Origin: Erysipelotrichaceae bacterium
Lineage (GTDB): Bacteria > Bacillota_I > Bacilli_A > Erysipelotrichales > Erysipelotrichaceae
Reading direction: 5' to 3'
NCBI GenBank assembly: GCA_017431405.1
Contig: JAFRLB010000077.1
Location: 21,515-85,514 of the forward strand
Length of the DNA stretch: 64,000 nt
The position numbers and the translations under genes are program-made. Positions 34,541 through 60,516 of the stretch are shown here, piece after piece. The notes under the pieces are model-generated. The model saw only the letters and a program-made list of their open reading frames with translations, had not been told where the DNA came from and did not search any database. The number at the start of each line of letters is the position of its first letter. Position 1 is the first letter of the stretch.

Positions 34541-35326
34541 ATGATTGCTTCAGAAAGACGTATTTACATTTTAGGCAAACTATCCGAAAGAGGAACAATC
34601 TCTTTAACTGAAACAGCTAAAGAGCTACACACATCAGTAGCTACTGTACGCCGTGACTTTGATTCCCTGGCAAAGGAAGATTACATTGAAAGAGTTCATG
34701 GCGGACTTATTCTTAAGGAATCAATGTTCCTGCAGAAAAACATGTATAACAATAACGCCGCCTTGGCCTTGAAGCAAAGACAGAAGAGCAACGAGGCTGA
34801 AAAGCGTGTTGTTGCGCAGGCAGCTGCTTCCCTGGTTAACGATGGCGATTTCATTTATCTTGACACAGGTACATCAATTGCCGCAATCGTTGATTTCTTA
34901 CTGGATAAGAAGATCAGCATCGTTACTCCTAACCTTCTGATATTGGACAGAATCAGAGAACTGGAAGTTGAAATGGATATCGTTCTGATTGGCGGCAAGT
35001 GTAACATTTCCCATGGCTCAACGGTTGGTCCTATTTCCGTACAGTTCATTCAGCAGTTCAATTTCGACAAGGCATTTTTTGGATGCTACGCAATTGATCT
35101 GGCAACCAACATGGCATATGATGATGGCCCTGACTCCTGTTTCCTGAAGGTCAATGCCTTTAACAATACCAATGACAGCTACCTGTTAGCCGATTCATCA
35201 AAGCTAAACAAGAAATCATTCTACAAGTTTACGGAAATATCAAAGTTCAAGAACGTTTTCTGTAACACACCAAAGAACAGCGACTATCGTTTGCCATCAA
35301 ATTTCATAACATTGGACGTTAAATAA
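34541..35326 (+). CDS. DeoR family transcriptional regulator
   Basis: 261 aa. N-terminal HTH is ERRIYILGKLSERGTISLTETAKELHTSVATVRRDFDSL, followed by a C-terminal sugar-phosphate sensor domain. Confidence 0.85.
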   Translation: MIASERRIYILGKLSERGTISLTETAKELHTSVATVRRDFDSLAKEDYIERVHGGLILKESMFLQKNMYNNNAALALKQRQKSNEAEKRVVAQAAASLVNDGDFIYLDTGTSIAAIVDFLLDKKISIVTPNLLILDRIRELEVEMDIVLIGGKCNISHGSTVGPISVQFIQQFNFDKAFFGCYAIDLATNMAYDDGPDSCFLKVNAFNNTNDSYLLADSSKLNKKSFYKFTEISKFKNVFCNTPKNSDYRLPSNFITLDVK

Positions 35327-35404
35327 ACAAATGCGGCTTTCTTACGGAAGGCCGTTTTTAATACAGACATTAATCTCAACGGTTACGTATTAGAAAGGAA
35401 GAAA

Positions 35405-36868
35405 ATGAACAGACCACAGACAATCATCACTACCGACATGGAAGTCGACGACATGAATTCCCTGATTCATTTATGTCTCTACTTAAATGAATTTGATTTA
35501 TTAGGTGTCATTTACACCTCCAGCCAGTACCATTTCCTGGGCGATGGCACTCACACTCTGGGTGAAATATCGCCAAATTACCGCTGCAGCGGGCCAAATG
35601 GAATGGTAAGACCAAGAGTAATACACGGACCAGACCCGGCGGCCAAAGATCTTTATGACTTCAGGCCATTTGAAAAAGGCTGGATCGAAAACCTCTGGAA
35701 TAATCAATACCGTGAAGCGTATGAAAACCTGAAAAAGCATGCCGAAGGCTACCCTACTCCAGAATATCTTCTGAGCATTACCAAGTATGGCAACATTGAA
35801 TTTGAAGGTGATGTCCGTTTTGATACTGAAGGATCAAAAATGATTGAAGAAGAGCTTTTAAAGGAAAAGGAAGACATTTTGTACCTGCAGTCCTGGGGTG
35901 GCGTAAATACCATTGTCAGAAGCCTCTTGTCAATTTACCAGCAGTATCATGAAACTGATAAATGGCAGGACATCTATGACAGGATCATCAGACGTGTAAG
36001 ATTATTAGGTGTATTCAACTTCATGGGTCAGGATAACAGCTATCTTGATAACCGCATTAACGAGCTTTACCCGGACTTAGTAATCATGGCAACCCAGCAT
36101 GTTTATGGCGTCTACAGCTTTGATAAGGTCGTACCTGATGACTGTGCATACATGTTTGAGGCTGACTGGATGAAGAAAAACATCCATGACGGTAACGGAC
36201 CGTTAATGGAAATGTACCACCTTTATGGTGATGGCCAGTATGTGCCTGGTGAAGCTGAGTTATATCAGTTTGGCATTAACTCAACACTGGACTTTGGTAA
36301 GCCTGGCATACCTCCTGTAAAATACGAACCATTTACCTTCTTAGCTGAAGGAGACAGTAATACATACATTCCATTAATCAGCTTTGGTACTGATGGCCTG
36401 ACTGATGAAGAATCGCCTACCCTGTTAGGTTACTTCCGAAAGGAAAAAGATCTGGAAAAGGTTGACCGCAATACTAAGAACGCCTGCTTCATAAAAGCTT
36501 ATCAGGAAGACTTCGCCGTAAGAGCAAAGTGGTGTGTAAGTGAATTTGAAGATGCCGTTCACCCGTTAAAGGTAACACTGAACAAGAATGTTACATATGC
36601 CGTACCTGCTGAAGTAATAAGTCTTAAGTCTATGATCAAGGACTATGACGGTAAAGGTTATACAGTCAAATGGCAGTTAATGCCGCAATACTCAAGATAT
36701 CATGGTAATGGCAGAGTATACATTTCGCATAAGAACAGCGTTGATACATCAGTCATCATCCCGGCTGACTGTAAACCTGGCGACATGTTCTTCATTCTCC
36801 TGGAAGCCAGAAACAAGGCAGATATACCAACTACCAGATATGCTCAGGTAAAAATCATAGTTATATAA
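35405..36868 (+). CDS. DUF1593-type (nucleoside-hydrolase-like N-domain) protein
   Basis: 487 aa with the N-terminus IITTDMEVDDMNSLIHLCLYLNEFDLLGVIYTSS, typical of DUF1593. Confidence 0.55.
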   Translation: MNRPQTIITTDMEVDDMNSLIHLCLYLNEFDLLGVIYTSSQYHFLGDGTHTLGEISPNYRCSGPNGMVRPRVIHGPDPAAKDLYDFRPFEKGWIENLWNNQYREAYENLKKHAEGYPTPEYLLSITKYGNIEFEGDVRFDTEGSKMIEEELLKEKEDILYLQSWGGVNTIVRSLLSIYQQYHETDKWQDIYDRIIRRVRLLGVFNFMGQDNSYLDNRINELYPDLVIMATQHVYGVYSFDKVVPDDCAYMFEADWMKKNIHDGNGPLMEMYHLYGDGQYVPGEAELYQFGINSTLDFGKPGIPPVKYEPFTFLAEGDSNTYIPLISFGTDGLTDEESPTLLGYFRKEKDLEKVDRNTKNACFIKAYQEDFAVRAKWCVSEFEDAVHPLKVTLNKNVTYAVPAEVISLKSMIKDYDGKGYTVKWQLMPQYSRYHGNGRVYISHKNSVDTSVIIPADCKPGDMFFILLEARNKADIPTTRYAQVKIIVI

Positions 36869-36874
36869 AAATAC

Positions 36875-36894
36875 CGGCGGACAATTGTCCGCCG
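36875..36894. terminator. Bidirectional terminator between convergent genes
   Basis: Perfect 20-nt palindrome cggcggacaattgtccgccg with T-rich flanks on both strands. Confidence 0.75.
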
Positions 36895-36899
36895 TTGTT

Positions 36900-38009
36900 T
36901 TATCTTTCGTAGAACCACTCACCATTTATCATGGTCTTAAGAACATTCAGGTCCTTATCCATTAATACCAGATCAGCCTTTCTGCCAACCTCGATTTTAC
37001 CTCTGTCCTTAAGCAGGTAAGCTTCAGCGGCATTCTCAGTAAATATCTTACCGATGGTTTCAAGTGAGAAGCCATGAGCATACATCGTACGCATGTTTTC
37101 ATCAAAGGTATGACAGCCCGTAACCAGCTTGCCATTGACATCTCTTACCGCGCCATCCTTAATAAATACCTTCATGCCGAACATGTCATATTCACCTTCC
37201 GGCTTACCCATTAATGGTGAAGAATCCGATACTGCCACAACATGGTCATCACCTTTCATCTTCAGAATCAGCTGAATGAATTCCGGGGATACATGGATAC
37301 AGTCACCGTTTAGCTGCAGGTAAAGATCCTTTTCCAGTAAACACTGTAATACTGCACTTGATACATGATGGTCTAATAACGGGAAGCCATTTGGATAGTG
37401 GTCAGTCAGTCTAGCTCCGTTTTTAACAGCGTCTCTGACATCTTCACTTGTTCCTTCGGTAAAGCCTATTAGCGGTAATACCCCGTTTTCCCTCAGCCAT
37501 CTGGTCCAGCTGCGGTCCGGATCCAATTCAGGAGCATACAGAACTGCCCTGACATCTGACAGATCCCCATCGGCCAGTTCAAGCGTATCTTCCTTACTTG
37601 GAGCTACACTTATTGGATAATAAGGAATTGAACGGTGCTTATAATCGGTATAAAGGAAGATACCGATGACTTCAGCACCGGGAACATTCTTGGTTGCTCT
37701 TATTGTTCTGAGTCTGTGCTTTGTTTCCTCATCATGCTTGACAATAGGTGTCGGTATGTAGGCCGTAACACCATATTGCGGTAAGGTACGGGCGATCTCC
37801 TGCATCTTTTCCAGCGAGTCACCGCAATAGGCTTCACAAGCCCCATGGAAATGAGCGTCAATGAAGCCGGCGAACAGATAACAGCCGCTTGCGTCAAAGC
37901 CCTCTTCTACAATGTCCTTGGAGATCTCCGTTATTAGCCCCTTCTCCGTTCTGACATCACAATCATAAAAACTGCCGTTAATAAATACCTTTGCGTTCTT
38001 TATTATCAT
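36900..38009 (-). CDS. Amidohydrolase, NagA-like (N-acetylhexosamine-6-phosphate deacetylase family, divergent)
   Basis: 369 aa with the metal motif GFIDAHFHG. Overall NagA-like length, but it lacks the usual HLFNAM-type segment. Confidence 0.6.
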   Translation of the reverse strand: MIIKNAKVFINGSFYDCDVRTEKGLITEISKDIVEEGFDASGCYLFAGFIDAHFHGACEAYCGDSLEKMQEIARTLPQYGVTAYIPTPIVKHDEETKHRLRTIRATKNVPGAEVIGIFLYTDYKHRSIPYYPISVAPSKEDTLELADGDLSDVRAVLYAPELDPDRSWTRWLRENGVLPLIGFTEGTSEDVRDAVKNGARLTDHYPNGFPLLDHHVSSAVLQCLLEKDLYLQLNGDCIHVSPEFIQLILKMKGDDHVVAVSDSSPLMGKPEGEYDMFGMKVFIKDGAVRDVNGKLVTGCHTFDENMRTMYAHGFSLETIGKIFTENAAEAYLLKDRGKIEVGRKADLVLMDKDLNVLKTMINGEWFYER

Positions 38010-38017
38010 ATTTCCTC

Positions 38018-39691
38018 CTAAGCCAGATACTTCTCACAGAAATACAGGAAAGCTCCGGCTGATGATGTAAAACTAGGCAGATGCTGGCCCTTGCCGCTTA
38101 AGGCACTGAAACATTCATAACTGCCTGATTTTCTGAAAGCGAAACAATAGGACATCATTATCCTTTCGGCGGTAGCCATTTCACCGCATTCATATAAGTT
38201 ATCTACCAGTGGAACGGTATAGTAGTGGAATACTGAACCACGGAAGTATCCGTCTTCTTCATACTTTTCACTTTGCTTAGCCTCGGAAGAAAGACCGTAA
38301 TCACTCATGTAGTCTCTCTCCAAGACGCCGATCCACTTCTTTCTCAAGCCTAATGGTAATCTGTCTTTTAGTAACAACAACGTATAAGGAATTATAGACT
38401 TTGTCTTTATCTCCTTACCGGTGATGCTTTCTCTTACACAAGGCAATCCTTCATCATTGACGAAATACTTAATGGCTTTCTGAGCTAAGATGTCAGCCTG
38501 CTCCTTCCAGTAAATTGATATTTTCCAGTTACCCAAGGTATCAGCTAAGATGCTTAAGGTATCCATGGCTTCAACCAGGTAACAAGTCAGATCTGGAGAA
38601 TCAACAGGACCGGCAAAATCAAATACCGTCGCATTATCCATGCAGGATTCATTGCCATGGTGATATTCACAAATGCCATCGTGATTGCCATCCTTATATA
38701 ACTGCCAGAATTCTATCTGTTTCTTAATGCCGTTATAGAGAATTGAAGCCTCTTCATAGCTGAGAGTATACCTCTTGATCAACTGGCGTAAGAACATGCC
38801 CTGTCCCGGCGGTTTCATGAACATCCAGCGCATGTTACTGTCGTCCATTGAACCGGGAATCGTTCCTATTTCATCCTGATGCTCAAAGAAGGATATTATC
38901 TGATTTAAGGCCAGCTTATTGTCAATTCCCACTAAGCCATACATTGGGAAGCCGGCATCAAATGACCATACGCAGTTAAGGTCATGGTTACTGGCTAAAA
39001 CAAGGTCACGCTTCTGTAATCCTTCAGCCTTGATAACACTTGACCAGAGTATGTATGCGGCATATCTGACATCATCCTGCCAGTCAGGTAATGATACCCT
39101 GTAGCCGCTGGCAAACATGTCAAAGACAAGTTCGGTGTTCTCAACACATTTTTCAAATTCAGTCTTGTCCCATAAGCAGCGATTCATGTTGTGCTTTACT
39201 TCCTGAATGCGGAAGGTATAGGCTTTTTCTCTGGATCTGATGACTAACTTGCAGACAAGGTTATTCTTGTCTTCATAATTATTCAATAAGAAAATGTCAG
39301 CTGAATCGCTGTAAACGATGTATTTGGTAAAAGTCTTGTAACTGTTAACAACGTAATAATAGCCTGTCTCATCCTTATTTCTGAAGGCATAGTCAAACTG
39401 ATTCGCCGGTGCAAAATCCAGTTCTATTACGGCCTCAGCCGTTCCCTGGAAGACAACTGTCGACTCATCGGAATAAGTAACGTTTACTACCTTGTCATCC
39501 TTACTGATGCTGGTCATAGGGAAACTAAGGTCAAGTTTCTGCTCTCCCTCGCCCAGAAGATTTACCGTCATTACATCAGCGATGTGAGTTGTCTTAGCCA
39601 TACCGTGCTTGGTATGCATGACCAGGTTACCGTCATTGTTTCTGAAAGACATGTATGAGCCGTAATAGCTGAAAAAATCAATCTGCTTCAT
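38018..39691 (-). CDS. Putative (alpha/alpha)6-barrel glycoside hydrolase (GH63/GH37-like)
   Basis: 557 aa. The segment HHGNESCMDNATVFD resembles the ESGMDNSPR catalytic-acid motif of six-hairpin glycosidases. Confidence 0.5.
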   Translation of the reverse strand: MKQIDFFSYYGSYMSFRNNDGNLVMHTKHGMAKTTHIADVMTVNLLGEGEQKLDLSFPMTSISKDDKVVNVTYSDESTVVFQGTAEAVIELDFAPANQFDYAFRNKDETGYYYVVNSYKTFTKYIVYSDSADIFLLNNYEDKNNLVCKLVIRSREKAYTFRIQEVKHNMNRCLWDKTEFEKCVENTELVFDMFASGYRVSLPDWQDDVRYAAYILWSSVIKAEGLQKRDLVLASNHDLNCVWSFDAGFPMYGLVGIDNKLALNQIISFFEHQDEIGTIPGSMDDSNMRWMFMKPPGQGMFLRQLIKRYTLSYEEASILYNGIKKQIEFWQLYKDGNHDGICEYHHGNESCMDNATVFDFAGPVDSPDLTCYLVEAMDTLSILADTLGNWKISIYWKEQADILAQKAIKYFVNDEGLPCVRESITGKEIKTKSIIPYTLLLLKDRLPLGLRKKWIGVLERDYMSDYGLSSEAKQSEKYEEDGYFRGSVFHYYTVPLVDNLYECGEMATAERIMMSYCFAFRKSGSYECFSALSGKGQHLPSFTSSAGAFLYFCEKYLA

Positions 39692-39708
39692 ATACTACCC
39701 TTCTTTCC

Positions 39709-41589
39709 TTAGATATTGGCAGCCAGGAAATAAGCATCCTCATTAGCGTCTTTGATCTTTCCCGGATTTGTACAGTCACCGATCATGTGGACACTGTATT
39801 CACCGGTAAAGAAACTGAATGCTTCATCTCTTCTGGCCTTTAATCCTGTCGCAATGATTACACAATCTGCCTTTTCATTAATCTCTTTCCCGTCAGCAGC
39901 AACATAGCTGACAGACTTTTTATTTATCTGAGTGACCTTTACATTTGTTTCGGTTGTAAGAGTCTTGCAAAGTGCCAGTTGCTGATCAAGGACGATGTCA
40001 TAGTAAATACTGTCCTGACGGTGCAGTTTATCGCCAGCTTCAAGTATTCTTACCTTTCTGCCTCTTCTGGCTAACTCAATGCCTAGTTCACAGCCTATCG
40101 TGCCGCCACCGATGATGATGACGTTTTCACCAACTTCATCAAGCTTAGGATATACGTCCAATGCACCAACAGCGTTTTCAACACCCTTGATTGGCGGGCA
40201 AGACTGTTCAGAGCCAATGGCAACAATTACTTCGTCAGGGTTTAATGCCTTAACGGTTTCATTTGTTACAGGAGTATTGAGGAATACCCTGATATCTGAC
40301 TTTTCGACCTGTCTGATGAGGTAATTGCGGTAGTTTCTGATATCCTGTTTTGCATCATCATAATCAGAATATTTTAATAAGCCACCAAGTCTGTCTTCCT
40401 TTTCATACAGGAAAACCTCATGACCTCTGTCTTTGGCAACAAGCGCGGCATTCATGCCGGCCACCCCACCGCCGATGATCATGACTTTCTTCTTTATTTC
40501 GGCCTTTACCGGATGCTCAGGAATGTAGTTATAACGCCAAGGTCTGACATTTACGGAACAGCTTCTGCTTCTTCTGTCAGTTGACCAGTGCATGCAGTAT
40601 GTACATCTGATGCATGGTCTGATGTCCTCATCATTGCCTTCCTTAGCCTTCTTTATCCAGTAAGCATCAGCCAGTAAAGGTCTGCCCAAGTAAACCAGGT
40701 CACAATAGCCTTCCTTAATCAATTCATTGGCTTCAGCAGGAGTCATTACTGAACCGACTACTGAAACAGCGATCTTACTGACACTTTCCTTGACCTTACG
40801 GGCGTATTCCCTATTGGTACAGTGCGGTTCAAATGCTGACTGGGCCATGTGAACGTTTGCACCCTTATCCATGTCTAACCCGGCAGATATGTTAACCATG
40901 TCAATGTATGGCTCACAATCCTTAACGAAACGTACGACATCTTCAAATTCAATGCCGTTTTCAATCCACTCATTAGCACTTAAGCGCATGTCGATCGGAT
41001 AATCTGATCCAACATATTCTCTTACTTTCTTAACACAGGCCAATGGGAAACGGGCACGGTTTTCATATGAACCGCCATATTCATCAGTTCGATGGTTAAT
41101 AGCCGGTGATAAGAACTGCGGTATTAACCAGCCATGAGCAAAATGCAGAACCACGATGTCAAAGCCGAAGTTCTTGGCTTCCAAGGCACTTCTGCCCCAT
41201 GATTCAGCTATTTCATCCATGTCTTTTTTCTGTAACTGCTTTACGTGTACTCCCTCAGGGTTGATTTCATCATTAGGTCCCCAGGTTTCATCATTTCTGT
41301 TCCACAAGCCCGGATGCATTAATTCGGCGCCAACATAGCTGCCGCCGGATTTATAGTAATCAAGTTTGTCTTTTGTTTCATAGCGCTGCGGTTTGGCAAA
41401 AGGATATGGCATGTCAAACCAGCGGGCACTTTTGTGATCAATGCCCATGGAGCCAATGTAATTGATTGCGGCCCCTGATTTCATTTTTTCCGGTGTTTCC
41501 GTATCATCAGTGAAAGGAGCGGCAATTATTCTGTTCGGCAACATGAGACTGTTAATTCTGATAGGGCTGAATAATTCCTTGAATTTCAT
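39709..41589 (-). CDS. Fe-S flavoenzyme of the OYE / 2,4-dienoyl-CoA reductase / enoate reductase (FadH, BaiH-like) family
   Basis: 626 aa. Has an N-terminal OYE TIM barrel, a Cys cluster RPCIRCTYCMHW...CSVN, and C-terminal GGGVAGM and GGGTIGCE dinucleotide folds. Confidence 0.8.
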   Translation of the reverse strand: MKFKELFSPIRINSLMLPNRIIAAPFTDDTETPEKMKSGAAINYIGSMGIDHKSARWFDMPYPFAKPQRYETKDKLDYYKSGGSYVGAELMHPGLWNRNDETWGPNDEINPEGVHVKQLQKKDMDEIAESWGRSALEAKNFGFDIVVLHFAHGWLIPQFLSPAINHRTDEYGGSYENRARFPLACVKKVREYVGSDYPIDMRLSANEWIENGIEFEDVVRFVKDCEPYIDMVNISAGLDMDKGANVHMAQSAFEPHCTNREYARKVKESVSKIAVSVVGSVMTPAEANELIKEGYCDLVYLGRPLLADAYWIKKAKEGNDEDIRPCIRCTYCMHWSTDRRSRSCSVNVRPWRYNYIPEHPVKAEIKKKVMIIGGGVAGMNAALVAKDRGHEVFLYEKEDRLGGLLKYSDYDDAKQDIRNYRNYLIRQVEKSDIRVFLNTPVTNETVKALNPDEVIVAIGSEQSCPPIKGVENAVGALDVYPKLDEVGENVIIIGGGTIGCELGIELARRGRKVRILEAGDKLHRQDSIYYDIVLDQQLALCKTLTTETNVKVTQINKKSVSYVAADGKEINEKADCVIIATGLKARRDEAFSFFTGEYSVHMIGDCTNPGKIKDANEDAYFLAANI

Positions 41590-41591
41590 AT

Positions 41592-42428
41592 TTAATCTCC
41601 CTGTAAGTATGTTTTTTCTAGCCAGTTAGCTACCCCGTCATCATTATTGGAATCAGTGACTTCGTCAGCGTGCTGCTTTACGATGTCGAAGGCATTATCC
41701 ATGGCTACCGCATAACCGCATAAGTCAAGAATGCCAATGTCGTTTTCACCATCACCAATGGCAACGGCATCTTCAGCCGTCAAACCTTCTCTTTCAAATA
41801 CTTCCTTTAAGGCACCGATCTTGGATATGCCCTTGCGCTGTACATCCAGCATGTTTGGCAATACCATGGCAGCCTCATACTGTGGCGGTACATGTTTCTG
41901 TAAATCTAAAAGGATCTTATGGGTAGAGATGTAGACCATCTTGGCAACTCCCTCTCTTGGAACTTCTGACAGTTTATGAATTTCAATAGGCTTTCGCATG
42001 AAAATGACCATTTTCATGATCTTCATCTGCATCAGTGTACGCATTGTGTTATAAAGGATCTTCCCCTTCAGATTTGCTGCATTGACACTCCATCTGTCTG
42101 CGTCAGCACGCATTACACAGGCATACTTATTTCCTAACTGAACAAGTTCTTCAACCTGCTCAGGTTCCAGTATTTCATGGCTCTGTACTTCACCGGTACG
42201 CATGTCAGTAATGTACTGACCGTTTATCGTACAGGCATAGTCATAAGTATCTTCAGGCAGTTCGGCATCTTCCAGTATTTTTGTTGTTCTGCCAGTATTC
42301 AGAACCAGTAAGATACCCTTTTTTCTTACCTTACGCATGACATCAATGGTTTTCTTTGATGCCTTGCCATTATCGCCTACTAATGTTCCATCAATATCTA
42401 ATGAAACCAGTTTATATTTCCTGTTCAT
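41592..42428 (-). CDS. Cof-type HAD-IIB phosphatase
   Basis: 278 aa, SLDIDGTL and GDGENDIGIL motifs. Confidence 0.75.
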   Translation of the reverse strand: MNRKYKLVSLDIDGTLVGDNGKASKKTIDVMRKVRKKGILLVLNTGRTTKILEDAELPEDTYDYACTINGQYITDMRTGEVQSHEILEPEQVEELVQLGNKYACVMRADADRWSVNAANLKGKILYNTMRTLMQMKIMKMVIFMRKPIEIHKLSEVPREGVAKMVYISTHKILLDLQKHVPPQYEAAMVLPNMLDVQRKGISKIGALKEVFEREGLTAEDAVAIGDGENDIGILDLCGYAVAMDNAFDIVKQHADEVTDSNNDDGVANWLEKTYLQGD

Positions 42429-42437
42429 CTCGTCCCC

Positions 42438-43085: not shown

Positions 43086-43111
43086 ATTTCTAATCCTCAC
43101 TTATCAAGAAT

Positions 43112-43172
43112 GGTGCACAGACAAAATTCTGTTTGTGCACCATGTAATTATTGTGTTTTGTTCAGACAAAAC
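43112..43172 (-). terminator. Two hairpins after GRE-1 (weak terminator or processing site)
   Basis: ggtgcacagac/gtttgtgcacc (11 bp, one mismatch) and gttttgt/acaaaac. Only a weak T-tract follows. Confidence 0.3.
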
Positions 43173-53356: not shown

Positions 53357-53369
53357 TATTCAGTTTTGA

Positions 53370-54143
53370 TTATTCAGCTTTTGTTACATCGCCATACCAT
53401 GTGGCTTCTGCTTCATGCCAGTCTGTGGTGTAGCGGTTCAGAGCGTCAGTGAACTTCTTAACGATTAAGTGTGGACGAGTAATTGCACTACCAACTACGA
53501 TAGCATCAACACCCATGTACATAGCCTTGATTGCATCTTCAGGAGTTTCAATGTGACCTTCCATAACAACGAAAGCTCTGTCCTTTAAGCCCTTAGCTAA
53601 TCTTGCTACTGCAGCGTAGTCTGGACGCTTGTAGCCCTGAGCCTTTGATTCAGGAGTGCCGCCCATACATGTTGTAGCAACGATATCAGCACCTAATTCG
53701 ATTGCGTGTTCAGCATTTTCGTATGTGTCGATATCAGCGAAGATCAGTGCATCTGGGATTTCCTTCTTGATTTCCTTGATCAGGTCGCAACGTGGTACAC
53801 CTAAATGGTTCAGACGCTGTGTGCTGTCTAAGGCAATGATCTGTGCACCAGCTTCATATAAAGCCTTAGCATGTTCAATGGTTGGAGTCATGATAATTTC
53901 GCCCATTGTATCGTAGTAGATCTTATGTAAGCCTACGATTGGCAGTTTAACTGCAGCATGGATAGCAGCAACCTGTTCAGGCTTGTTTGAACGGATACCA
54001 ACAGCTCCACCATATTCAGCAGCTTTTGCCATAGTAACAACTGTCCTTCCCTCATCATGGATAGGGTCATGAGGTTCGGTCTGGCATGAAACGATCAATC
54101 CACCTCTCATGCTGTCTAAAAGTGCCTTTTTGTCAAAACTCAT
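53370..54143 (-). CDS. NanE-family putative N-acylmannosamine-6-phosphate 2-epimerase, paralog 2
   Basis: 257 aa with the same motif set as paralog 1 and most positions identical to it. Confidence 0.8.
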   Translation of the reverse strand: MSFDKKALLDSMRGGLIVSCQTEPHDPIHDEGRTVVTMAKAAEYGGAVGIRSNKPEQVAAIHAAVKLPIVGLHKIYYDTMGEIIMTPTIEHAKALYEAGAQIIALDSTQRLNHLGVPRCDLIKEIKKEIPDALIFADIDTYENAEHAIELGADIVATTCMGGTPESKAQGYKRPDYAAVARLAKGLKDRAFVVMEGHIETPEDAIKAMYMGVDAIVVGSAITRPHLIVKKFTDALNRYTTDWHEAEATWYGDVTKAE

Positions 54144-54201
54144 TTTCTGTTTTACCTTCTTTCTATTTTGATATAGAGTGAATCTATTTATGGCCTAAAT
54201 C

Positions 54202-55116
54202 TTAACCGCCTGCCTGAACCTTGAGTCCCAGCTTATCGCCAAGAGCTTCATAATGCTTCAGGTCAGCCTTGCTCATCATCTTTGTACCCTTTAAGGCATA
54301 ATCACGGCCTAACTGTTCATACTTGTTTTCGCCTAAGTTATGGTAAGGTAAAAGATTTACTTCAGGTATGTTCAGACTGGCTGCCATTTCAATGATGGCT
54401 GTCAGTACTTCTTCTTCATAGTTGTAACCAGGGATAACCGGTACACGGATAACGATCTTTTCAGCGGCGATCTCTGCCAGCTTACGTAAGTTTTCCTGGA
54501 TTCTCCAGCCGTTACCACCGGTGATTTCCTTGATCTTTTCAGGAGTTGACTGCTTCATGTCGAACAGGAACTTGTCAATTAAAGGTTCTGCCTTCTTCAT
54601 TTTTTCCCAATCAGTATCGCCTGTTGTTTCAACAGCTGTGCTGATGCCTAATTCCTTGGCTCTCTGTAAGATGTTGTAGAAGAAATCAAACTGTACGAAT
54701 GGTTCACCACCAGATACGGTAATACCGCCGCCTGATACATCGTAGTAATCCTTGTCTCTGGAAATGTAATCAATTACTTCATCAACAGTCTTGATGTCAC
54801 CGATGAAGTTGATTGCCTTACCCGGACAGTTTCTTTCACAGGTTTTACAGCCAATACACTTGCTGCGGTCAAATTCCAGATGATCACCGACAATTGTAAT
54901 GGCATGCTGTGGACAGTTACGTGCACATGTTCCACACTTCAAGCATTTCTTAACGTTGTACATCAGCTGTGGTTTGATCTGCTGAGATTCTGGGTTTGCA
55001 CACCAAGGACATCTTAATGGACATCCCTGAATGAAAACTGTTGTTCTGATACCAGGACCATCATGGATGGCAAATCTTTCCATTTCCATGACACTACCCT
55101 TAACTACGTCTGCCAT
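54202..55116 (-). CDS. Glycyl radical enzyme activating enzyme (radical SAM, with ferredoxin-like insert)
   Basis: Start trimmed to MADVVKGSVMEMERFAIHDGPGIRTTVFIQGCPLRCPWCANPES after the RBS GGAGG. Also has CLKCGTCARNCP and CIGCKTCERNCP clusters. Confidence 0.9.
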   Translation of the reverse strand: MADVVKGSVMEMERFAIHDGPGIRTTVFIQGCPLRCPWCANPESQQIKPQLMYNVKKCLKCGTCARNCPQHAITIVGDHLEFDRSKCIGCKTCERNCPGKAINFIGDIKTVDEVIDYISRDKDYYDVSGGGITVSGGEPFVQFDFFYNILQRAKELGISTAVETTGDTDWEKMKKAEPLIDKFLFDMKQSTPEKIKEITGGNGWRIQENLRKLAEIAAEKIVIRVPVIPGYNYEEEVLTAIIEMAASLNIPEVNLLPYHNLGENKYEQLGRDYALKGTKMMSKADLKHYEALGDKLGLKVQAGG

Positions 55117-55176
55117 AATTACCTCCATTTGCAACTTTTTGATTGTTTTTAAACTTTTATATTCAATTTCACCAAT

Positions 55177-55205
55177 AATATAACATTTTTACCCTTTATT
55201 GTATA
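55177..55205 (-). promoter_or_regulatory. Candidate promoter of the activase-NanE-GRE operon
   Basis: Minus strand TATACA, 17 nt spacer, then TGT-TATATT (extended -10). The -35 overlaps the GTATATACAT motif. Confidence 0.35.
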
Positions 55206-55393
55206 TACATTTGCCAGTGAAATTGCATATTCTTTCATAATAAATCAATTTGTGACATTATGCATTTTTAGCACAAACATTCACAGTAATTAAAGCTCCA
55301 CTGGAATTACCAACAGAGCTTTAATTCTCTCTGAAACCAGCTGTGATTTCAGAATGGTAAACCAGATGATTTTTGACTCATCCAATTGAAGTT

Positions 55394-56029
55394 CTATACG
55401 TATTTTTCAACTTCCAGGATGGAAGTGATTATTACATCAGCTTCCTGCTGTCTGGCAAAGCCATCAACATCTCTTAAGGCAATTGTAAACGCCCCGGCCG
55501 CCTTGCCAGCCCTGATGCCTAATGGTGAATCCTCAATTACTATTGCCTCTTCAGGTAAGACATTATGATCTCTGATCGCTTCTTCAAAAACGAATGGATC
55601 AGGCTTGATATGCCCTGTTTCCGTACCGCTGTAGAACTTATCGAAATAATGCATCAGATTTGTTTTTTCCAGGATATCGCGGCCAATTACCGGTACGGCA
55701 TTGGTAGCGATGCTGCATGGAATGTTTTTGTTTTTTAAATAGATAAGCAGTTCTTCAATGTTCTCTGTCAGAAGCTCATGCGGATCTTCCGGATAATACT
55801 TGAACCAAGGTCCGTGAATCTTATCCCAATTTCTATATGCCTCCTGATTGCCGAAAGTAGCATCCATGACATTACGGAAATCCAGATGACTGACACCCAT
55901 GAAATTTGAGATGTCATCATGTGTATAACTTACCCCTGCCTCATCGAGTTGCTTCATGAATACACGCATGTTAAGCGTTTCAGTCTGGGCAATTACACCG
56001 TCAAAGTCAAATATTACCAGCTTAATCAT
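55394..56029 (-). CDS. HAD-IA family hydrolase (beta-phosphoglucomutase / sugar phosphatase-like)
   Basis: Start trimmed to MIKLVIFDFDGVIAQTE after the RBS GGAGGG. Confidence 0.75.
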   Translation of the reverse strand: MIKLVIFDFDGVIAQTETLNMRVFMKQLDEAGVSYTHDDISNFMGVSHLDFRNVMDATFGNQEAYRNWDKIHGPWFKYYPEDPHELLTENIEELLIYLKNKNIPCSIATNAVPVIGRDILEKTNLMHYFDKFYSGTETGHIKPDPFVFEEAIRDHNVLPEEAIVIEDSPLGIRAGKAAGAFTIALRDVDGFARQQEADVIITSILEVEKYV

Positions 56030-56249
56030 AATACCCTCCAAATACACTCTTAATAGTATATACAATATATCACATTACCATTTTAATGTATATACATATA
56101 ACTGATTATTTATCACAATATATAAAAAATCTGCCTTTTATAAAAAGCAAATAATTATTTAATATGTTTAAAACTCACATTTTTTCAAAATTAGTATATA
56201 CATTTATAATAATCTGTTATACTGATGTACAAAAAGAGGTAAAGAACTT

Positions 56250-56834
56250 ATGAGATTGGCTATTGATATTGACGGATGCATGACAGATGACAACAGATTC
56301 AGACTTGAACAGCATGGAAAATACTTATACGAACACAACCTGCCGGAAATGGATCTGCCATACGAAAGCGAGATAAAATGTGGCTATTTTACTGAAGAAC
56401 AGGTAAACGAATTCTGGAATGCCACATTCTTTGAATACATCGAAAACGTGCAGCCTTTGTTATATGTTTCTGAAGTCATGCATAAGCTTAAGGAAGACGG
56501 CCATACAATTTTCATCTGTACAGGCCGTGTCGGTTCTACCAGGCAGGACGAATATGGCGAAAAAGTAAGAAACATTACCATTAACTGGTTAAAGAAATAC
56601 GACATTGTTTATGATGATATCATTTTTTCGGGTTTTCCTAAGATCAATTACATACGTCCATACAACTGCGATCTGTTTGTTGAAGACAATACACGTACTG
56701 CTACAATACTGGCTAAGGAAATGCCCGTGCTCTTATTTGATAATCCTTATAACGTTAACTACGAATGTGATAATGTAACCAGGATATTCAGCTGGTACGA
56801 CATTTACCGCCACATAAAAGAAGGAACCTACTAA
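56250..56834 (+). CDS. HAD-superfamily 5'(3')-nucleotidase-like protein (NT5C type)
   Basis: 194 aa, MRLAIDIDGCMTD nucleophile motif, with length and layout like the NT5C family. Confidence 0.5.
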   Translation: MRLAIDIDGCMTDDNRFRLEQHGKYLYEHNLPEMDLPYESEIKCGYFTEEQVNEFWNATFFEYIENVQPLLYVSEVMHKLKEDGHTIFICTGRVGSTRQDEYGEKVRNITINWLKKYDIVYDDIIFSGFPKINYIRPYNCDLFVEDNTRTATILAKEMPVLLFDNPYNVNYECDNVTRIFSWYDIYRHIKEGTY

Positions 56835-56877
56835 AAAAAGCAGTCCCCTGAGATCATTCCTCAGGGGATTGCTTTTG
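56833..56877. terminator. Bidirectional terminator between convergent genes
   Basis: Stem tcccctgag/ctcagggga, extended by agca/tgct. A7 lies upstream and T4 downstream. Confidence 0.7.
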
Positions 56878-56937
56878 TCTATAGTGACTATATCAGATTA
56901 TAGTCAGTTTTTATGAGTGCAATATTATGAATTGATT

Positions 56938-57798
56938 TTATAATACGTGTAATACTACACCGATGACTGAACATAAGATGATACCAAGAATGATCTGCCA
57001 TGGTTTTGCATGTTTTACTCTGATGAGATTCAGCATCCACAGAGTAAACAATACAGGCAGGATCTTTGGTACGATTGAGTCAATCAGTGACTGAACATTA
57101 AATGCGATATCGCCATCTGGGCCAGAATATGTGTATCCTAACTTGATGTTGATATTAACAAATGATGTTGTCATAGCGCCCATGGTCATCAAACCTACGA
57201 TAGTAGCATACTGTGTAATTAATGGAATGATACCTGTTTCAGCAGCACTTCTTAAGAACTGTGAACCACCGTTCCATGCCATGATTGGTAAAACGTGACG
57301 TACAATAGCACTTGGGATATTGTATGAAACGAAGTAGATGATTGGACCTAAGATGCTTCCCTGTAATGAGTAACCAACAGCTAAACCTGTTGATAAGATC
57401 TTGAAAGATCCCCAGAACAGAGAGTCACCGATACCAGATAATGGGCCCATTAATGCAGCTCTAACACCGTTGATAGAAGCTACATCGTAATCTGGATTCA
57501 TAGATGCTTCCTTTTCCATTGATGCGATTAAGCATGCTAAGAATGGAGCAACCTGTGGTGTAATATTGAAGAAGCCGTCTTCACGTAAGTAAGCAGTGAT
57601 TCTGTCCTGCTTTGAATGACCTCTTGCATCACTGTAGTATTCTTCAATGACTGGAGCCATTGAGTTAACGAATGCTACGCCCTGCATTGTTTCATAGTTG
57701 AATGCAGTATTAACACGTGCAGCACGCCAGATAGTTTCGTTAACAACTTTCTTGTCAACGCTATCTAAGTATAACAGACTATTTTTCTTCTCACTCAT
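56938..57798 (-). CDS. PTS mannose/fructose/sorbose family IID component
   Basis: 286 aa with a typical IID N-terminal cytoplasmic region and C-terminal helices. Overlaps the IIC stop. Confidence 0.85.
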   Translation of the reverse strand: MSEKKNSLLYLDSVDKKVVNETIWRAARVNTAFNYETMQGVAFVNSMAPVIEEYYSDARGHSKQDRITAYLREDGFFNITPQVAPFLACLIASMEKEASMNPDYDVASINGVRAALMGPLSGIGDSLFWGSFKILSTGLAVGYSLQGSILGPIIYFVSYNIPSAIVRHVLPIMAWNGGSQFLRSAAETGIIPLITQYATIVGLMTMGAMTTSFVNINIKLGYTYSGPDGDIAFNVQSLIDSIVPKILPVLFTLWMLNLIRVKHAKPWQIILGIILCSVIGVVLHVL

Positions 57799-58582
57799 CG
57801 AATAAGTCCTCCTCTCCGCCTGCAGCCTTTACAGTTGCAGGAGCAGCTGTACGGCCGAAGTTGTAGTTAACTAAGCAGTACAGAACACCAGCGGCAGCAA
57901 CACCCAGCATTGGGATGCCTAAGTAAGCTGCTAAGAACCAACCTAACCAGTAGAATACAGCTGTCTTGTTAGACCAGATGATATTCAGGATCAGGGCGAT
58001 ACCAATAGCAGGAATGAAGCCTGTAGCTGTTGATAAGCCTGTCATTAACCACTGTGGTAATGAAGCGATGAACTGTTCAACAGCACCTGAGTTACCACTT
58101 GCAGCGATTAAAGCAACACCTAAGAGTACATGAATTGAAGCAGCCATGTTATGAACAGCGATGATCAAGTACTGTAAAGCATGCAGTTTCTTTGGCTCAG
58201 CCTGTTCACAAAGAGCAGTAACTCTAGGGTTGAAGAATGATTCCAGGGTTAATACAACTGGAGCCCACTGAGCACCTAATAAAGCTACAGGTACTGCAAG
58301 GGCAACAGCTGCCTCCTGGTCGACGCCTAACAGGATAACCATTGCTGTAGCGATGGCGGTACCAGCTACTGAGTCCTGAGGCATTGTAGCACCAATGTTG
58401 ATAGCACCAAGGAACAATAATTCAAGTGAACCACCAAGTGTAATACCAGTTGTGATATCACCTAATACTGCTCCGACGAATGTGCCTACAAATATTGGCT
58501 GCGACAAAAATGTGTAACCAAACCATGTATTCGCTAAGTTACTGAAAATAACCACGATATACACTAATAAAGCATTTAGCAT
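57791..58582 (-). CDS. PTS mannose/fructose/sorbose family IIC component
   Basis: 263 aa polytopic protein, ...LGDITTGITLGGSLELLFLG... typical of IIC(Man). Confidence 0.85.
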   Translation of the reverse strand: MLNALLVYIVVIFSNLANTWFGYTFLSQPIFVGTFVGAVLGDITTGITLGGSLELLFLGAINIGATMPQDSVAGTAIATAMVILLGVDQEAAVALAVPVALLGAQWAPVVLTLESFFNPRVTALCEQAEPKKLHALQYLIIAVHNMAASIHVLLGVALIAASGNSGAVEQFIASLPQWLMTGLSTATGFIPAIGIALILNIIWSNKTAVFYWLGWFLAAYLGIPMLGVAAAGVLYCLVNYNFGRTAAPATVKAAGGEEDLFDE

Positions 58583-58603
58583 TTCGTTCTCCTTTCTATG
58601 AAA

Positions 58604-59101
58604 TTATAAATTTTTCAAAATGCTATCCAAGTTCACTTTGGCATCAGACGGAATTGTACGGGAGTCAACATTATCATTGCCAACCAGTTCAACGATTCTC
58701 TTCAAACAAACAATGTCGTCGTCATCGAAAATCATGCCCTTCCACAGTTGTTTCCCATCTTTTTTCTTCTGGGCGCCGCCAACATTAACTGTGCCGACAT
58801 TTTCCGGACCGATTCCCTCAATGAACTTAACTGTGTCACGCAAATTTTTGCATACGCCGAAAAGTTGCATGTCAGCAGTTTTTGGGTTTTTTACCAATTC
58901 GATTGCTTCATCAATAGTTCTGATGGCAATTTTCATGCCCTGAGGCTTTGCCAGCTTAACTGCCATTTTACCGATTTCATCATTTACCAATGCATCATTA
59001 GCAATAAGGATCGCATTTGGTGCAATGATGTTCAGCCATGACATAGCTACCTGTCCGTGAATCAATCTGTAATCAGTACGTAATACTTTAACTTTTGCCA
59101 T
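58604..59101 (-). CDS. PTS mannose family IIB component
   Basis: 165 aa. The phospho-His motif is LRTDYRLIHGQV. Confidence 0.85.
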   Translation of the reverse strand: MAKVKVLRTDYRLIHGQVAMSWLNIIAPNAILIANDALVNDEIGKMAVKLAKPQGMKIAIRTIDEAIELVKNPKTADMQLFGVCKNLRDTVKFIEGIGPENVGTVNVGGAQKKKDGKQLWKGMIFDDDDIVCLKRIVELVGNDNVDSRTIPSDAKVNLDSILKNL

Positions 59102-59147
59102 AAATGATTCCTCTCTTTCAAAGTATTATTATCTGTAATAGGTCCCC

Positions 59148-59879
59148 TTACCTATTATTTCTGATTTCATCTACGGTTATACCCAGAACAACCGGTGTTG
59201 ACTTAAAACCAATGCCCATTCTGTCTATACCCATATCTACCAATTCAAGGAAGTGCTCACGGGTACGTATTGCCCCGCTGCCCTTGATCTTGCATCTGCC
59301 CTTTGCCCCAGCCATCATAGCCTGGACAACTTCATTAGATGCACCTACTGATGGAGCGCCGGTGAAGAATCCGGTAGATGACTTAACAAAGTCAGCACCT
59401 GCTTCAGCAACCAGATCAGCACCTTTTTCTATCTGTTCAAGTGTTAATGAATCTGTTTCCAGGATGACTTTCAGTTCAGAGCCCATCTGATGACAGGCAT
59501 CCGCAACTTCCTTTACATCCTTCTGGAAGCGTTCATATTCACCACTTCTTAATAAGCCATAGTTAGAAACAACATCGATTTCATCAACCTTGCACTTATC
59601 AAGAACGATTCTCATCTGTTCAATCTTTGATTCTGTTGTACTGGTTCCAAACGGGAAGTCTACTACTACGCAGATCCCGGTATTTGTCCCCTTGGTCATT
59701 TCAATGGCGATGTCCAGATATGAAGGATTGATGCAAACGGTCTTGCAATTGAAGTCGATGCCTTCCTGGATATATCTCTTTACATCATCCTGGGTAAATT
59801 CTGGTTTTAATACTGACTGGTCAATGTATCTTCCTAATTCCTGCCATGTCATTTCACAAGCTTTTTTATCAGGTTTCAT
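59148..59879 (-). CDS. DeoC/LacD-family class I aldolase (second DeoC-like paralog)
   Basis: 243 aa. Motifs IDQSVLKPE, VCINPSY, and the Schiff-base Lys in ADFVKSSTGF. Confidence 0.8.
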   Translation of the reverse strand: MKPDKKACEMTWQELGRYIDQSVLKPEFTQDDVKRYIQEGIDFNCKTVCINPSYLDIAIEMTKGTNTGICVVVDFPFGTSTTESKIEQMRIVLDKCKVDEIDVVSNYGLLRSGEYERFQKDVKEVADACHQMGSELKVILETDSLTLEQIEKGADLVAEAGADFVKSSTGFFTGAPSVGASNEVVQAMMAGAKGRCKIKGSGAIRTREHFLELVDMGIDRMGIGFKSTPVVLGITVDEIRNNR

Positions 59880-59889
59880 TGTTCTCCCC

Positions 59890-60516
59890 CTATTCTTCGT
59901 CTACAAATTCACTTGCCACTTTCGGCATAATTACTATCTTGAATTCGCCATTTTCATAACGGAACTTTGTTATTGAACCGTTCGGGAAGATGTGCTTAGG
60001 GTCCCCGCCTAATACGTCTTCCATGGCTTTTAATACTCTGTTAATGAGAACTAAAGAGAAGTTACCGTGTGATACTAATAAGATATTGTCATTGTCGTTA
60101 GCTTCTTCAACATACTGATTTAAGGCTTCACGGCATCTGACTTCAATTTCATCACTGGTTTCACCACCAATGTCAGCCCAGCGTTCCTCTCTTTTTCTGG
60201 CCCAGAAATCATCGATGTCTATTGTCTTACCTGGCTTGCCATCATATAAGCCGAAATTCTTTTCTCTGATTCTGGTGTCCTGTTCCAGTTTTAAGTATGG
60301 ATGGTATTGTAAAACGATCTCAGCAGTTTCTATTGCTCTTGACAATGTGCTGGCGATCGCTCTGTTAAACTTGATATTCTTCAAAGATTCAGCAGCATCC
60401 TGAGCCTGTTGTTTACCATGCTCATTTAAGTCTGTAGGAGAAATACCACTAATGATGCCATTTGCGTTGGCAATAGTTTCACCGTGTCTTACCAAAAAGA
60501 AATTTACAGTCTTCAT
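59890..60516 (-). CDS. Histidine phosphatase family protein (phosphoglycerate mutase-like)
   Basis: Start trimmed to MKTVNFFLVRHGETIAN (RHG motif) after the RBS GGAG. Also has LLVSHGN. Confidence 0.8.
   Translation of the reverse strand: MKTVNFFLVRHGETIANANGIISGISPTDLNEHGKQQAQDAAESLKNIKFNRAIASTLSRAIETAEIVLQYHPYLKLEQDTRIREKNFGLYDGKPGKTIDIDDFWARKREERWADIGGETSDEIEVRCREALNQYVEEANDNDNILLVSHGNFSLVLINRVLKAMEDVLGGDPKHIFPNGSITKFRYENGEFKIVIMPKVASEFVDEE

Follow-up and report, generated by a model that had tools for sequence, protein, structure and literature searches.

The closest described relatives of the system reported here are the "anhydroglycolysis" loci of Escherichia coli, ybiV-ybiW-ybiY/fsaA and frwCB-pflDC-frwD, in which a phosphotransferase system (PTS), a glycyl radical enzyme (GRE) with its activase, an aldolase and a Cof-type phosphatase serve the conversion of sugar 6-phosphates. 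PflD is a 1,5-anhydromannitol-6-phosphate C-O lyase and YbiW a 1,5-anhydroglucitol-6-phosphate C-O lyase, and the product is split by an aldolase (PMC13450708). The present analysis concerns a carbohydrate gene island in a stretch of 64,000 nucleotides (hereafter the window) from an Erysipelotrichaceae bacterium, where tandem GRE genes lie near genes for NanE-like epimerases, a mannose-type PTS and a class I aldolase of the deoxyribose-phosphate aldolase (DERA) type. The first-pass annotation of the window had cited PflD and YbiW as orphan enzymes beside PTS genes and an aldolase; the gene order it gave is right, the two enzymes are orphans no longer, and the precedent is stronger than it supposed, the route being now an established pathway. 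The island shares with E. coli the same set of gene types, a Cys-x-Glu (CXE) cysteine loop in the radical enzyme and several GREs for related substrates in one organism. It differs in that its GREs stand apart in the tree, as a clade at the end of a long branch, and lack a loop of about 10 residues after the ENxRTTVNGR segment, the PTS is of the mannose type and not of the fructose type (Frw), the aldolase is of the DERA type and not Fsa, and a NanE-like epimerase is obligatory here, whereas the E. coli loci have none. No Fsa/TalC partner accompanies the GREs; the single TAL_FSA hit in the genome is a 360-aa open frame on another contig (C70).

The window corresponds to contig C94:21515-85514 of a 1.84-Mb metagenome-assembled genome (MAG) of the Erysipelotrichaceae, estimated to be 83% complete; its genes were matched at 99% identity in a MAG from roe-deer jejunum. 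Gene content was determined by open reading frame (ORF) calling and by Pfam and NCBIfam profile scans, and all the genes listed by the first-pass annotation were recovered at, or within a few codons of, the positions it gave. For the neighbourhood survey, ORFs were called in 80 fetched GRE loci, which together with the window make 81 loci, and neighbours were clustered by BLAST (E < 1e-15, at least 60% coverage). Co-occurrence within the family was tested on 60 Erysipelotrichaceae genera with one genome per genus, and relatives of the GRE were counted by a pattern scan of one genome per species.

A NanE-like epimerase, a GRE and its activase form a widespread module, which in this species is amplified to five GREs, two divergent epimerases and one activase. 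The grouping of genes in the island is beyond chance by neighbourhood and co-occurrence statistics; the comparison of neighbourhoods of orthologous GREs proposed in the first-pass annotation was carried out over the 81 loci and showed grouping in excess of chance. What had been called the "GRE core" consists of one activase, two NanE-like genes and four tandem GREs of about 760 aa, and a fifth GRE lies outside the window:

54202-55116, minus strand: GRE-activating radical-SAM enzyme (TIGR02494, 332.9 against a cut-off of 174; ATG at 55116 after GGAGG)
53370-54143, minus strand: NanE-like epimerase 1, 257 aa (NF002231, 218.2 against a cut-off of 189; acetamide-contact Tyr replaced by Gly)
52477-53256, minus strand: NanE-like epimerase 2, 259 aa (NF002231, 212.6 against a cut-off of 189; acetamide-contact Tyr replaced by Ile)
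50078-52375, minus strand: GRE1, 765 aa (PFL-like and Gly_radical domains)
47792-50065, minus strand: GRE2, 757 aa (PFL-like and Gly_radical domains)
45473-47773, minus strand: GRE3, 766 aa (earliest branch of the four; own Cys-loop neighbourhood FGCGEQTLVGMGIGTPN)
43190-45463, minus strand: GRE4, 757 aa (PF02901 and PF01228; 87% identical to GRE2)
G000:C94:91287-93563 (about 69773-72049 in window numbering; L098:9279-11585), minus strand: GRE5, 768 aa (65% identical to GRE1)

The four GREs of the window share 67-87% pairwise identity, all match PF02901 (E 1e-103 to 1e-114) and PF01228, and have RVSGFSA as Gly loop and FGCGE as Cys loop. Cys409 and Glu411 of GRE1 align with Cys433 and Glu435 of glycerol dehydratase and are invariant across 22 aligned family members, giving a loop with a single Cys. 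The CXE loop is a hallmark of GRE 1,2-eliminases and of the newer GRE isomerases, as opposed to the Cys-Cys of formate lyases (PMC13450708). None of the curated GRE models fits GRE1-GRE4: the PFL2-3 subfamily model gave 268-291 bits against a cut-off of 678, and the CutC, HypD, HpfG/HpsG and PflD models gave 194-260 bits against cut-offs of 1000-1109. Membership in the PflD/YbiW family was ruled out by model scores (PflD model NF007437, 194-234 bits against 1109), by phylogeny and by the coexistence of both types in locus L042 (described below). The closest solved structure is glycerol dehydratase (233 bits), and the YbiW and PflD chains 8ID0, 8ID7 and 8YJO reached 157-198 bits. The NanE-linked type is absent from a June 2026 review of characterised GREs (PMC13450708), and a literature search for a characterised NanE-linked GRE found none. 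The pattern scan returned 345 species hits in Bacillota, Bacteroidota and Actinomycetota, and a protein search returned more than 1600 clusters of GRE relatives, including very common human-gut Parabacteroides proteins.

The B12-independent glycerol/diol dehydratases (1R8W, 5I2A) are thus the best-scoring solved relatives, with the register of the catalytic Cys and Glu and the Gly loop in common. They also offer a chemical precedent, the conversion of a vicinal diol to an aldehyde with an adjacent CH2, which is the kind of product cleaved by a DERA-type aldolase. In contrast, the score is only 233 bits, the genes around the window GREs are sugar-phosphate genes and not microcompartment or 1,3-propanediol genes, and the residues that we take, in part after PMC13450708, to contact glycerol are not kept (His164 aligns with Gly; Asp447 and Tyr339 fall in gaps). 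In alignments to glycerol dehydratase, YbiW and PflD, the remaining contact positions likewise fall in gaps or in generally conserved motifs; since only the Cys and the Glu map onto these enzymes, the substrate is not readable from the GRE sequence.

The GRE occurs in 16 of the 60 family genera, each time as a single copy. The copy number does not exceed one in the 60 other genera, and within the genus five copies were found only in a genome of the same species (G008). The alternating lengths of the tandem genes (765, 757, 766 and 757 aa) raised the possibility of an A-B-A'-B' duplication of a heteromeric pair, which the tree (GRE3,(GRE1,(GRE2,GRE4))) does not support. In 75 other family members, 290 alignment columns reach a conservation of 93% or more, and one or more of the window paralogues depart from 73 of them; several of these are placed around the Cys loop, and some are common to all five GREs. 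The altered pocket residues suggest that the GRE and epimerase paralogues may take different stereoisomers or C2 substituents, and the combination of changed GRE columns with changed epimerase pockets argues for an altered or broadened substrate range rather than mere gene dosage. According to a whole-genome search, the activase is the only copy of its type in the assembly and lies in the GRE operon. All five GREs have identical Gly loops, and such a loop in every paralogue beside a sole activase fits the known specificity of activases.

Two side observations concern individual paralogues. GRE5 is located 5.8 kb past the window end, with no activase or NanE of its own, and is followed by genes for a Cof HAD, a GntR regulator, a YdjC-like deacetylase and a 340-aa protein matching no family. 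In the sister MAG RGIG4363, codon 170 of the GRE2 orthologue (L007:2353-4626) reads TAG instead of the AAG of the window, and the gene departs from that of the window at 70 of 2274 bases, whereas the products of the genes around it are 99-100% identical; relaxed selection or gene conversion acting on the youngest duplicate could account for this.

The two NanE-like genes of the window are about 85% identical. Both products keep the six catalytic residues of NanE (Gln, Arg, Lys, Asp, Glu and Arg), and the six catalytic/binding positions are invariant in 63-65 of the 65 GRE-linked NanE-like proteins; the roles of these residues were taken from the work on N-acetylmannosamine-6-phosphate 2-epimerase (PMC8482478). 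Because the catalytic residues are invariant, C2 proton chemistry on an open-chain aldose 6-phosphate would be expected. The GRE-linked type resembles the NanK/NanE step of sialic-acid catabolism in being a TIM-barrel epimerase with the same six residues that is often preceded by a ROK kinase. It differs from canonical NanE in a C-terminal extension of about 20 aa, in Tyr/Trp before the catalytic Lys and in YGY for SGY. The GRE-linked type lacks the nanA and nanK context of NanE: no DHDPS/NanA-type gene was found in the island or in the sampled loci, and the ROK partners, glucokinase-like and not NanK-like, scored 251-257 bits with a glucokinase subfamily model (cut-off 260) and 119-141 bits with the NanK models (cut-offs 283 and 450). 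The Tyr contacting the acetamide is kept in 63 of the 65 linked copies and is replaced by Gly and Ile in the two window copies, which are outliers in their own family; at the second N-acetyl-contact position (Phe/Tyr after the catalytic Lys) they have Ile, with His, Met and Ile at pocket positions nearby.

The assembly contains a third NanE-like gene (G000:C105:13257-14003; L107:7258-8004), whose product has the GLYK and YGY motifs and the C-terminal tail of the consensus GRE-linked type. It lies away from any GRE, adjoining a carboxylesterase gene near split transketolase genes. In the Erysipelotrichales locus L042 (13215-20736), genes for a PflD-like GRE, the activase belonging to it and an Fsa-like aldolase stand back to back with a NanE-linked GRE module, and the locus also has a canonical NanE, accompanied by a separate DeoR regulator. 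Since all three systems occur side by side there, the NanE-GRE module duplicates neither sialic-acid catabolism nor anhydroglycolysis.

Among the 81 loci, the GRE was accompanied by an activase in 72, a NanE-like gene in 61, a ROK kinase in 34, an AraC regulator in 31, a DeoR regulator of the same cluster as that of the window in 25, a GFO_IDH_MocA oxidoreductase in 23, a 738-aa GH94-superfamily-like protein in 15, a Cof HAD in 12, PTS-Man IIB/IIC/IID in 8-9, and a phosphomannose isomerase (PMI), a NagB-like protein and a DeoC-type aldolase in 5 each, all counts being approximate, because the ORF caller was crude and the clustering was set at the thresholds given above. The PMI partners passed the manA equivalog, and the 738-aa protein had no relative in PDB or NCBIfam. 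The earlier proposal that PTS uptake, a C2-epimerase and a radical enzyme belong together is borne out by the frequencies of the activase and the NanE-like gene, with either the ROK kinase or PTS-Man as a further partner. In the tree, the window GREs group with the GRE5 orthologue of the sister MAG (L008) in a clade confined to the species, which is nested in a 12-member branch whose other members L009-L011 and L015 have in one operon, in this order, a sigma-54/LevR-type activator, IIA, IIB, IIC, IID, NanE, GRE and activase. Because this gene order is conserved in the closest relatives, the link between PTS, epimerase and GRE is more than proximity in one genome.

Corrinoid methyltransferase genes were observed directly 3' of the GRE-activase pair in two unrelated genomes, L015:15938-20592 (the same contig region as L002) and L033:14191-18400. 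They encode RACo, a B12-binding protein, MtaB and URO-D-type proteins, and in L033 they adjoin genes for a GH38 alpha-mannosidase and a PTS EIIC. A possible hint at methyl-ether or methylated mannose-type substrates comes from these two loci, which are too sparse to use.

The PTS and aldolase genes of the island form one operon, closed by a terminator-like hairpin:

59890-60540, minus strand: histidine-phosphatase-superfamily protein, first gene of the PTS/aldolase operon (PF00300, 135.3 bits; equivalogs below cut-off)
59148-59879, minus strand: DERA-type class I aldolase of a distinct subtype, "DeoC2" (TIGR00126, 169.6 against a cut-off of 117.3)
58604-59101, minus strand: PTS mannose-family IIB (PF03830, 119.3 bits; no IIA upstream)
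57791-58582, minus strand: PTS mannose-family IIC (PF03609, 193.7 bits; best equivalog AgaW, 137.6 against 300)
56938-57798, minus strand: PTS mannose-family IID (PF03613, 243.6 bits; equivalog models all below cut-off)
56844-56868, minus strand: terminator-like hairpin at the end of the operon (10-bp stem, then a T-run)

The earlier statement that the window contains no IIA gene was confirmed, and a search of the whole assembly was likewise negative at its 83% completeness. The assembly encodes HPr, EI and three IIB(Man) genes, none with an adjacent IIA. Stand-alone IIA genes were found in 8 of the 8 congeners searched, with 2-3 in each; a genuine loss was therefore set aside, and a gap in the assembly (17% unassembled) is the likely cause of the missing gene. 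The two other Man-type PTS sets of the assembly (G000:C64:20648-21082 and G000:C20:15204-15641; L104, L106) are also without an adjacent IIA, and the set on C20 is preceded by genes for a GNAT acetyltransferase and a PIG-L/LmbE-type deacetylase.

DeoC2 keeps D102, the Schiff-base lysine K167 and K201, which are invariant in the alignment and place it, together with the TIGR00126 score, among the class I DERA aldolases. Its separation from the housekeeping deoC at 27356, claimed by the first-pass annotation, holds, with an identity of only 32%. Compared with DERA proper, it is 27-32% identical to the E. coli and housekeeping DeoC, has a 4-residue insertion after the KxSTGF Schiff-base loop and KGSG for KAAGG, and neighbours genes for sugar transport, a kinase, GRE and an oxidoreductase, not nucleoside genes. 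DeoC2 was present in 16 of 16 GRE-positive and 5 of 44 GRE-negative Erysipelotrichaceae genomes (Fisher one-sided p = 1.4e-10, a value that overstates the evidence because related genomes are not independent). This signal is not a general "sugar-rich genome" effect, since the same tests were negative for the Old Yellow Enzyme (OYE)-type flavoenzyme (0/16) and the glycosidase (1/16) of the island. Two unrelated loci (L043, L077) have a DeoC2 orthologue of 60-62% identity next to the NanE-linked GRE, and a further orthologue, on an Acetivibrionales contig (L092), adjoins a GRE of another kind (801 aa) with a PfkB kinase. In Christensenella timonensis (L091:4297-11008), DeoC2 adjoins a gene for a 704-aa OYE/FadH-type flavoenzyme, this pair being divergent from AP_endonuc_2, PfkB and GFO genes, and no GRE is present there. 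The flavoenzymes of L091 and the window are only 28% identical, though the aldolase and flavoenzyme types recur in both.

We lean towards reading the adjacent transcription units as a catabolic island for one or more hexose-like sugars, built on the amplified NanE-GRE-activase module. The best-supported reading of the chain comprises import with 6-phosphorylation, C2 epimerisation, a radical step and aldol cleavage. Its general architecture, with a PTS followed by an epimerase and a GRE acting on the sugar 6-phosphate, is judged likely. The Man-type PTS would import the sugar and phosphorylate it at C6, using an IIA that probably lies in the unassembled DNA; here the comparative genomics links the PTS to the GRE module. 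The NanE-like enzymes, with their catalytic residues in place, would then invert C2 of the open-chain aldose 6-phosphate. After installation of the glycyl radical by the activase, a thiyl radical in the Cys-Gly-Glu loop is predicted to abstract hydrogen from a hydroxyl-bearing carbon, and the GRE would expel the group on the neighbouring carbon in a 1,2-elimination or dehydration of the kind known from glycerol dehydratase, CutC and YbiW; the motifs are those described above. The deoxy product, directly or after one ketoreduction, would be a 2-deoxy-aldose phosphate, which the DERA-type aldolase, in keeping with its co-occurrence with the GRE, may split into acetaldehyde and a shorter sugar phosphate. 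A ketoreduction, if needed, could be supplied by the GFO or aldo-keto reductase neighbours. A radical elimination ending in a 2-deoxy-aldose phosphate is favoured because an aldose-6-phosphate epimerase, a diol-dehydratase-like CXE enzyme and a DERA-type aldolase are combined, yet this specific chemistry is put forward as rather doubtful, and the presence of an aldolase step in the route is rated just short of an even chance. More doubtful still is the wider proposal that the NanE-linked GREs constitute a new reaction class, 1,2-eliminases of aldose or alditol 6-phosphates that remove a hydroxyl, amide, amine or ether at C2, with the NanE-like enzyme setting C2 and the DERA-like enzyme releasing acetaldehyde and a tetrose phosphate.

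Several observations weigh against this chain. A redox-neutral elimination on an aldose 6-phosphate yields no 2-deoxy-aldose directly, so the chain requires a further, assumed reductase step. All sugar-phosphate GREs characterised to date are ring-opening isomerases and not eliminases. IIA(Man) (PF03610) is found neither in the window nor in the assembly, the aldolase and PTS genes of the window occupy a different operon from the GREs, and no copy of the palindrome described below for the GRE operon precedes the PTS/aldolase operon. Outside the family, DeoC2 was present in 11 of 30 GRE genomes and missing in 19, including most Bacteroidota, and GRE-less genomes, among them Citrobacter and 5 of the family, carry it as well; these absences and GRE-less carriers indicate that DeoC2 is not an obligate partner and that the step is lineage-dependent. 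The aldolase step of the first-pass annotation is accordingly sustained by co-occurrence within the Erysipelotrichaceae and by the orthologues beside the GRE in two loci, but not as a universal part of the route.

The remaining features of the island and its surroundings are as follows:

33529-34335, minus strand: Cof-type HAD-IIB, sugar-phosphatase-like, just outside the annotated 26-kb span (PF08282, 140.9 bits)
34541-35326, plus strand: DeoR-family regulator with helix-turn-helix and sugar-phosphate sensor domains (PF00455 and PF08220)
35405-36868, plus strand: Sde182_NH-like (formerly DUF1593) protein, convergent with the GRE operon (PF07632, 146.5 bits)
36875-36894, both strands: bidirectional terminator-like hairpin (8-bp stem, 7 of its pairs GC; T-rich tail on either strand)
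36900-38009, minus strand: NagA-like amidohydrolase, last gene of the GRE operon (TIGR00221, 159.5 against a cut-off of 225.65)
38018-39691, minus strand: MGH1-like (GH63-like, six-hairpin) glycoside hydrolase (PF22422, 75.7 bits)
39709-41589, minus strand: OYE/FadH-type Fe-S flavoenzyme, BaiCD- and bilirubin-reductase-like (PF00724 and PF07992; BaiCD, 363 against 825)
41592-42428, minus strand: Cof-type HAD-IIB phosphatase (TIGR00099, 151.7 against a cut-off of 137)
42438-43100, minus strand: 220-aa protein, membrane helix at the N-terminus and helical body rich in Lys and Glu (unmatched in Pfam and NCBIfam; this species only)
43110-43143, no strand assigned: hairpin between GRE4 and the 220-aa gene (perfect 14-bp stem, no T-tract on the coding strand)
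55394-56029, minus strand: HAD-IA protein, beta-phosphoglucomutase-family-like (PF13419, 112.8 bits; TIGR02009, 85.5, below cut-off; ATG at 56029 after GGAGG)
56250-56834, plus strand: HAD-like NT5C-type protein (PF06941, 22.3 against a cut-off of 24.8; no PDB hit)
62152-63733, plus strand: second mannose-family IIC/IID pair, 10 nt after metK (metK-IIC-IID stretch 61053-63733)

The gene list of the island of about 26 kb proposed by the first-pass annotation stands, while its span comprises at least three transcription units and the island extends past the window. On the minus strand, three tightly packed units were distinguished: the PTS/aldolase unit (histidine phosphatase, DERA-type aldolase, PTS-Man IIB, IIC and IID), the lone HAD-IA gene, which faces the HAD-like NT5C-type gene of the plus strand and probably forms a transcription unit of its own, and an 18-kb GRE run (activase, two NanE-like genes, GRE1-GRE4, the 220-aa protein, the Cof HAD, the OYE-type flavoenzyme, the glycosidase and the NagA-like gene). 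From the activase through the NagA-like gene the intergenic gaps are 2-113 nt, and terminator-like hairpins occur only at 56868-56844 and 36894-36875. The latter closes both the GRE operon and the DeoR/Sde182 unit, which converges on it from the plus strand. The tail genes lie 2-89 nt from GRE4 and from one another, with no T-tract terminator between them; the hairpin at 43110-43143 could be an RNA processing or attenuation site parting the GRE genes from the tail genes. To the right of the annotated span, the plus strand carries metK, the second IIC/IID pair and, past the window end on the same strand, genes for a manA-type PMI and an aldo-keto reductase, and the minus strand carries genes for the 340-aa protein, the YdjC-like protein, GntR, the Cof HAD and GRE5.

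The DeoR gene falls in one BLAST cluster with the DeoR genes of 25 of the 81 GRE loci. A palindrome with the core GTATATAC occurs four times (55200-55209, 56055-56064, 56087-56096 and 56193-56202), in each case upstream of the GRE operon or in the divergent HAD region (55.2-56.2 kb); over the whole window, its count is not above chance. It could be an operator for part of the island only.

The OYE-type flavoenzyme, the glycosidase, the NagA-like protein and the 220-aa protein are species-specific or lineage-specific additions to the GRE operon. The flavoenzyme shows a CxxCxxC...C motif in the alignment, and the glycosidase has no relative in PDB or NCBIfam. Conserved roles of these two with the GRE were ruled out by the co-occurrence test, in which the OYE-type gene appeared in 0 and the glycosidase in 1 of the 16 GRE-positive family genomes. 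The earlier suggestion of an enone reduction and a place for the glycosidase in the route therefore find no support beyond same-operon placement in this species. The suggested deacetylation fares no better: the NagA-like gene, 8 nt from the gene upstream, stays below the NagA equivalog cut-offs (NF008371, 99 against 483, and TIGR00221 as listed), does not recur in GRE loci and is connected with the route by operon placement only. The Sde182_NH-like protein matches no NCBIfam model and does not recur in other GRE loci.

The HAD phosphatases named by the first-pass annotation were found as genes at its coordinates, and the assignment is partial for 56250-56834, which has a sub-threshold NT5C match together with DIDG (DxD), TGR (T) and ED motifs. 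The Cof HAD at 41592-42428 is of the type of E. coli YbiV, encoded next to ybiW, with a match that is local only (34% over 79 aa), and that at 33529-34335 clusters with the Cof HADs of 12 of the 81 GRE loci. Removal of dead-end sugar phosphates is the probable role of the Cof and HAD phosphatases.

Three other explanations of the island were considered. The GREs might be ring-opening C-O lyases (isomerases) of those 1,5-anhydro-alditol-6-phosphate stereoisomers that PflD and YbiW refuse, the resulting 1-deoxy-ketose 6-phosphate being split by a DeoC-type aldolase instead of Fsa. The only characterised sugar-phosphate GREs do catalyse such a reaction, alongside a PTS, an aldolase and the Cof phosphatase YbiV; the window GREs have the CXE loop, the ROK partner is glucokinase-like, and DeoC2 also stands beside the 801-aa GRE with its PfkB kinase. 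Moreover, GFO_IDH_MocA (23 loci), AP_endonuc_2 and 3-keto-disaccharide hydrolase genes are frequent neighbours of the GRE, and these families act in oxidative glycoside and anhydro-sugar cleavage. This explanation is nevertheless unlikely: an enzyme of the NanE type requires an open-chain aldehyde whose C2-H is acidic, a feature missing from anhydro-alditols, yet the aldehyde- and phosphate-binding residues are invariant; the PflD model score remains far below its cut-off; and the true PflD-like GRE with activase and Fsa-like aldolase that adjoins the NanE-linked cluster in L042 shows that the two are not redundant. In addition, DERA-type aldolases take acetaldehyde-type donors rather than hydroxyacetone.

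An amino-sugar pathway of the NanK/NanE type, with the GRE acting on an N-acyl-hexosamine 6-phosphate (e.g., by radical loss of the C2 amide or amine) and the NagA-like and YdjC-like deacetylases of the island serving the same flux, would agree with NanE-like scores above the NCBIfam subfamily cut-off, with the acetamide-methyl-contacting Tyr kept in most linked copies, with NagB-like genes in 5 loci and with AgaW (N-acetylgalactosamine) as the best IIC model. It appears distinctly improbable, given that the ROK partners are glucokinase-like and not NanK, nanA does not occur nearby, a canonical NanE exists beside the linked type in L042, both window copies have lost the acetamide-contact Tyr, and the NagA-like gene is below cut-off and does not recur; a radical enzyme also seems needless where hydrolytic NagA/NagB chemistry already serves such sugars. 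An equally small probability is given to independent sugar operons that are adjacent by chance, the pathway being limited to activase, NanE and GRE and the PTS/aldolase and tail genes serving other substrates. Terminator-like sites do part the units, the OYE, glycosidase, NagA-like, Sde182-like and histidine phosphatase genes do not recur with the GRE elsewhere, Christensenella has a DeoC2 and OYE-type cluster without a GRE, and the palindrome of the GRE operon is absent upstream of the PTS operon. Against chance adjacency stand the PTS-Man and GRE genes held in the same operon by the closest relatives, the presence of DeoC2 with the GRE in all 16 family genomes and the close spacing of the tail genes to GRE4 and to each other, with no T-tract terminator between them.

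GREs perform chemistry otherwise closed to anaerobes, and newly assigned clades have revealed gut-relevant pathways for choline, hydroxyproline, sulfonates and anhydro-sugars. The NanE-linked clade is large, includes proteins of common human-gut Parabacteroides and lies outside the June 2026 review. For this clade, the island supplies a testable chain of an importer, an epimerase, a GRE and a DERA-type aldolase that tracks the GRE perfectly within one bacterial family. The five GRE paralogues and two epimerases with altered pockets, served by a single activase, represent a natural specificity experiment. Identification of the substrate would add a carbohydrate route to metabolic models of the gut microbiome and possibly a new type of GRE reaction. 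If the C2-eliminase proposal were true, it would describe a new anaerobic route for sugars beyond the reach of hydrolytic chemistry, which the five GREs and two re-tooled epimerases would widen to several substrates in this species.

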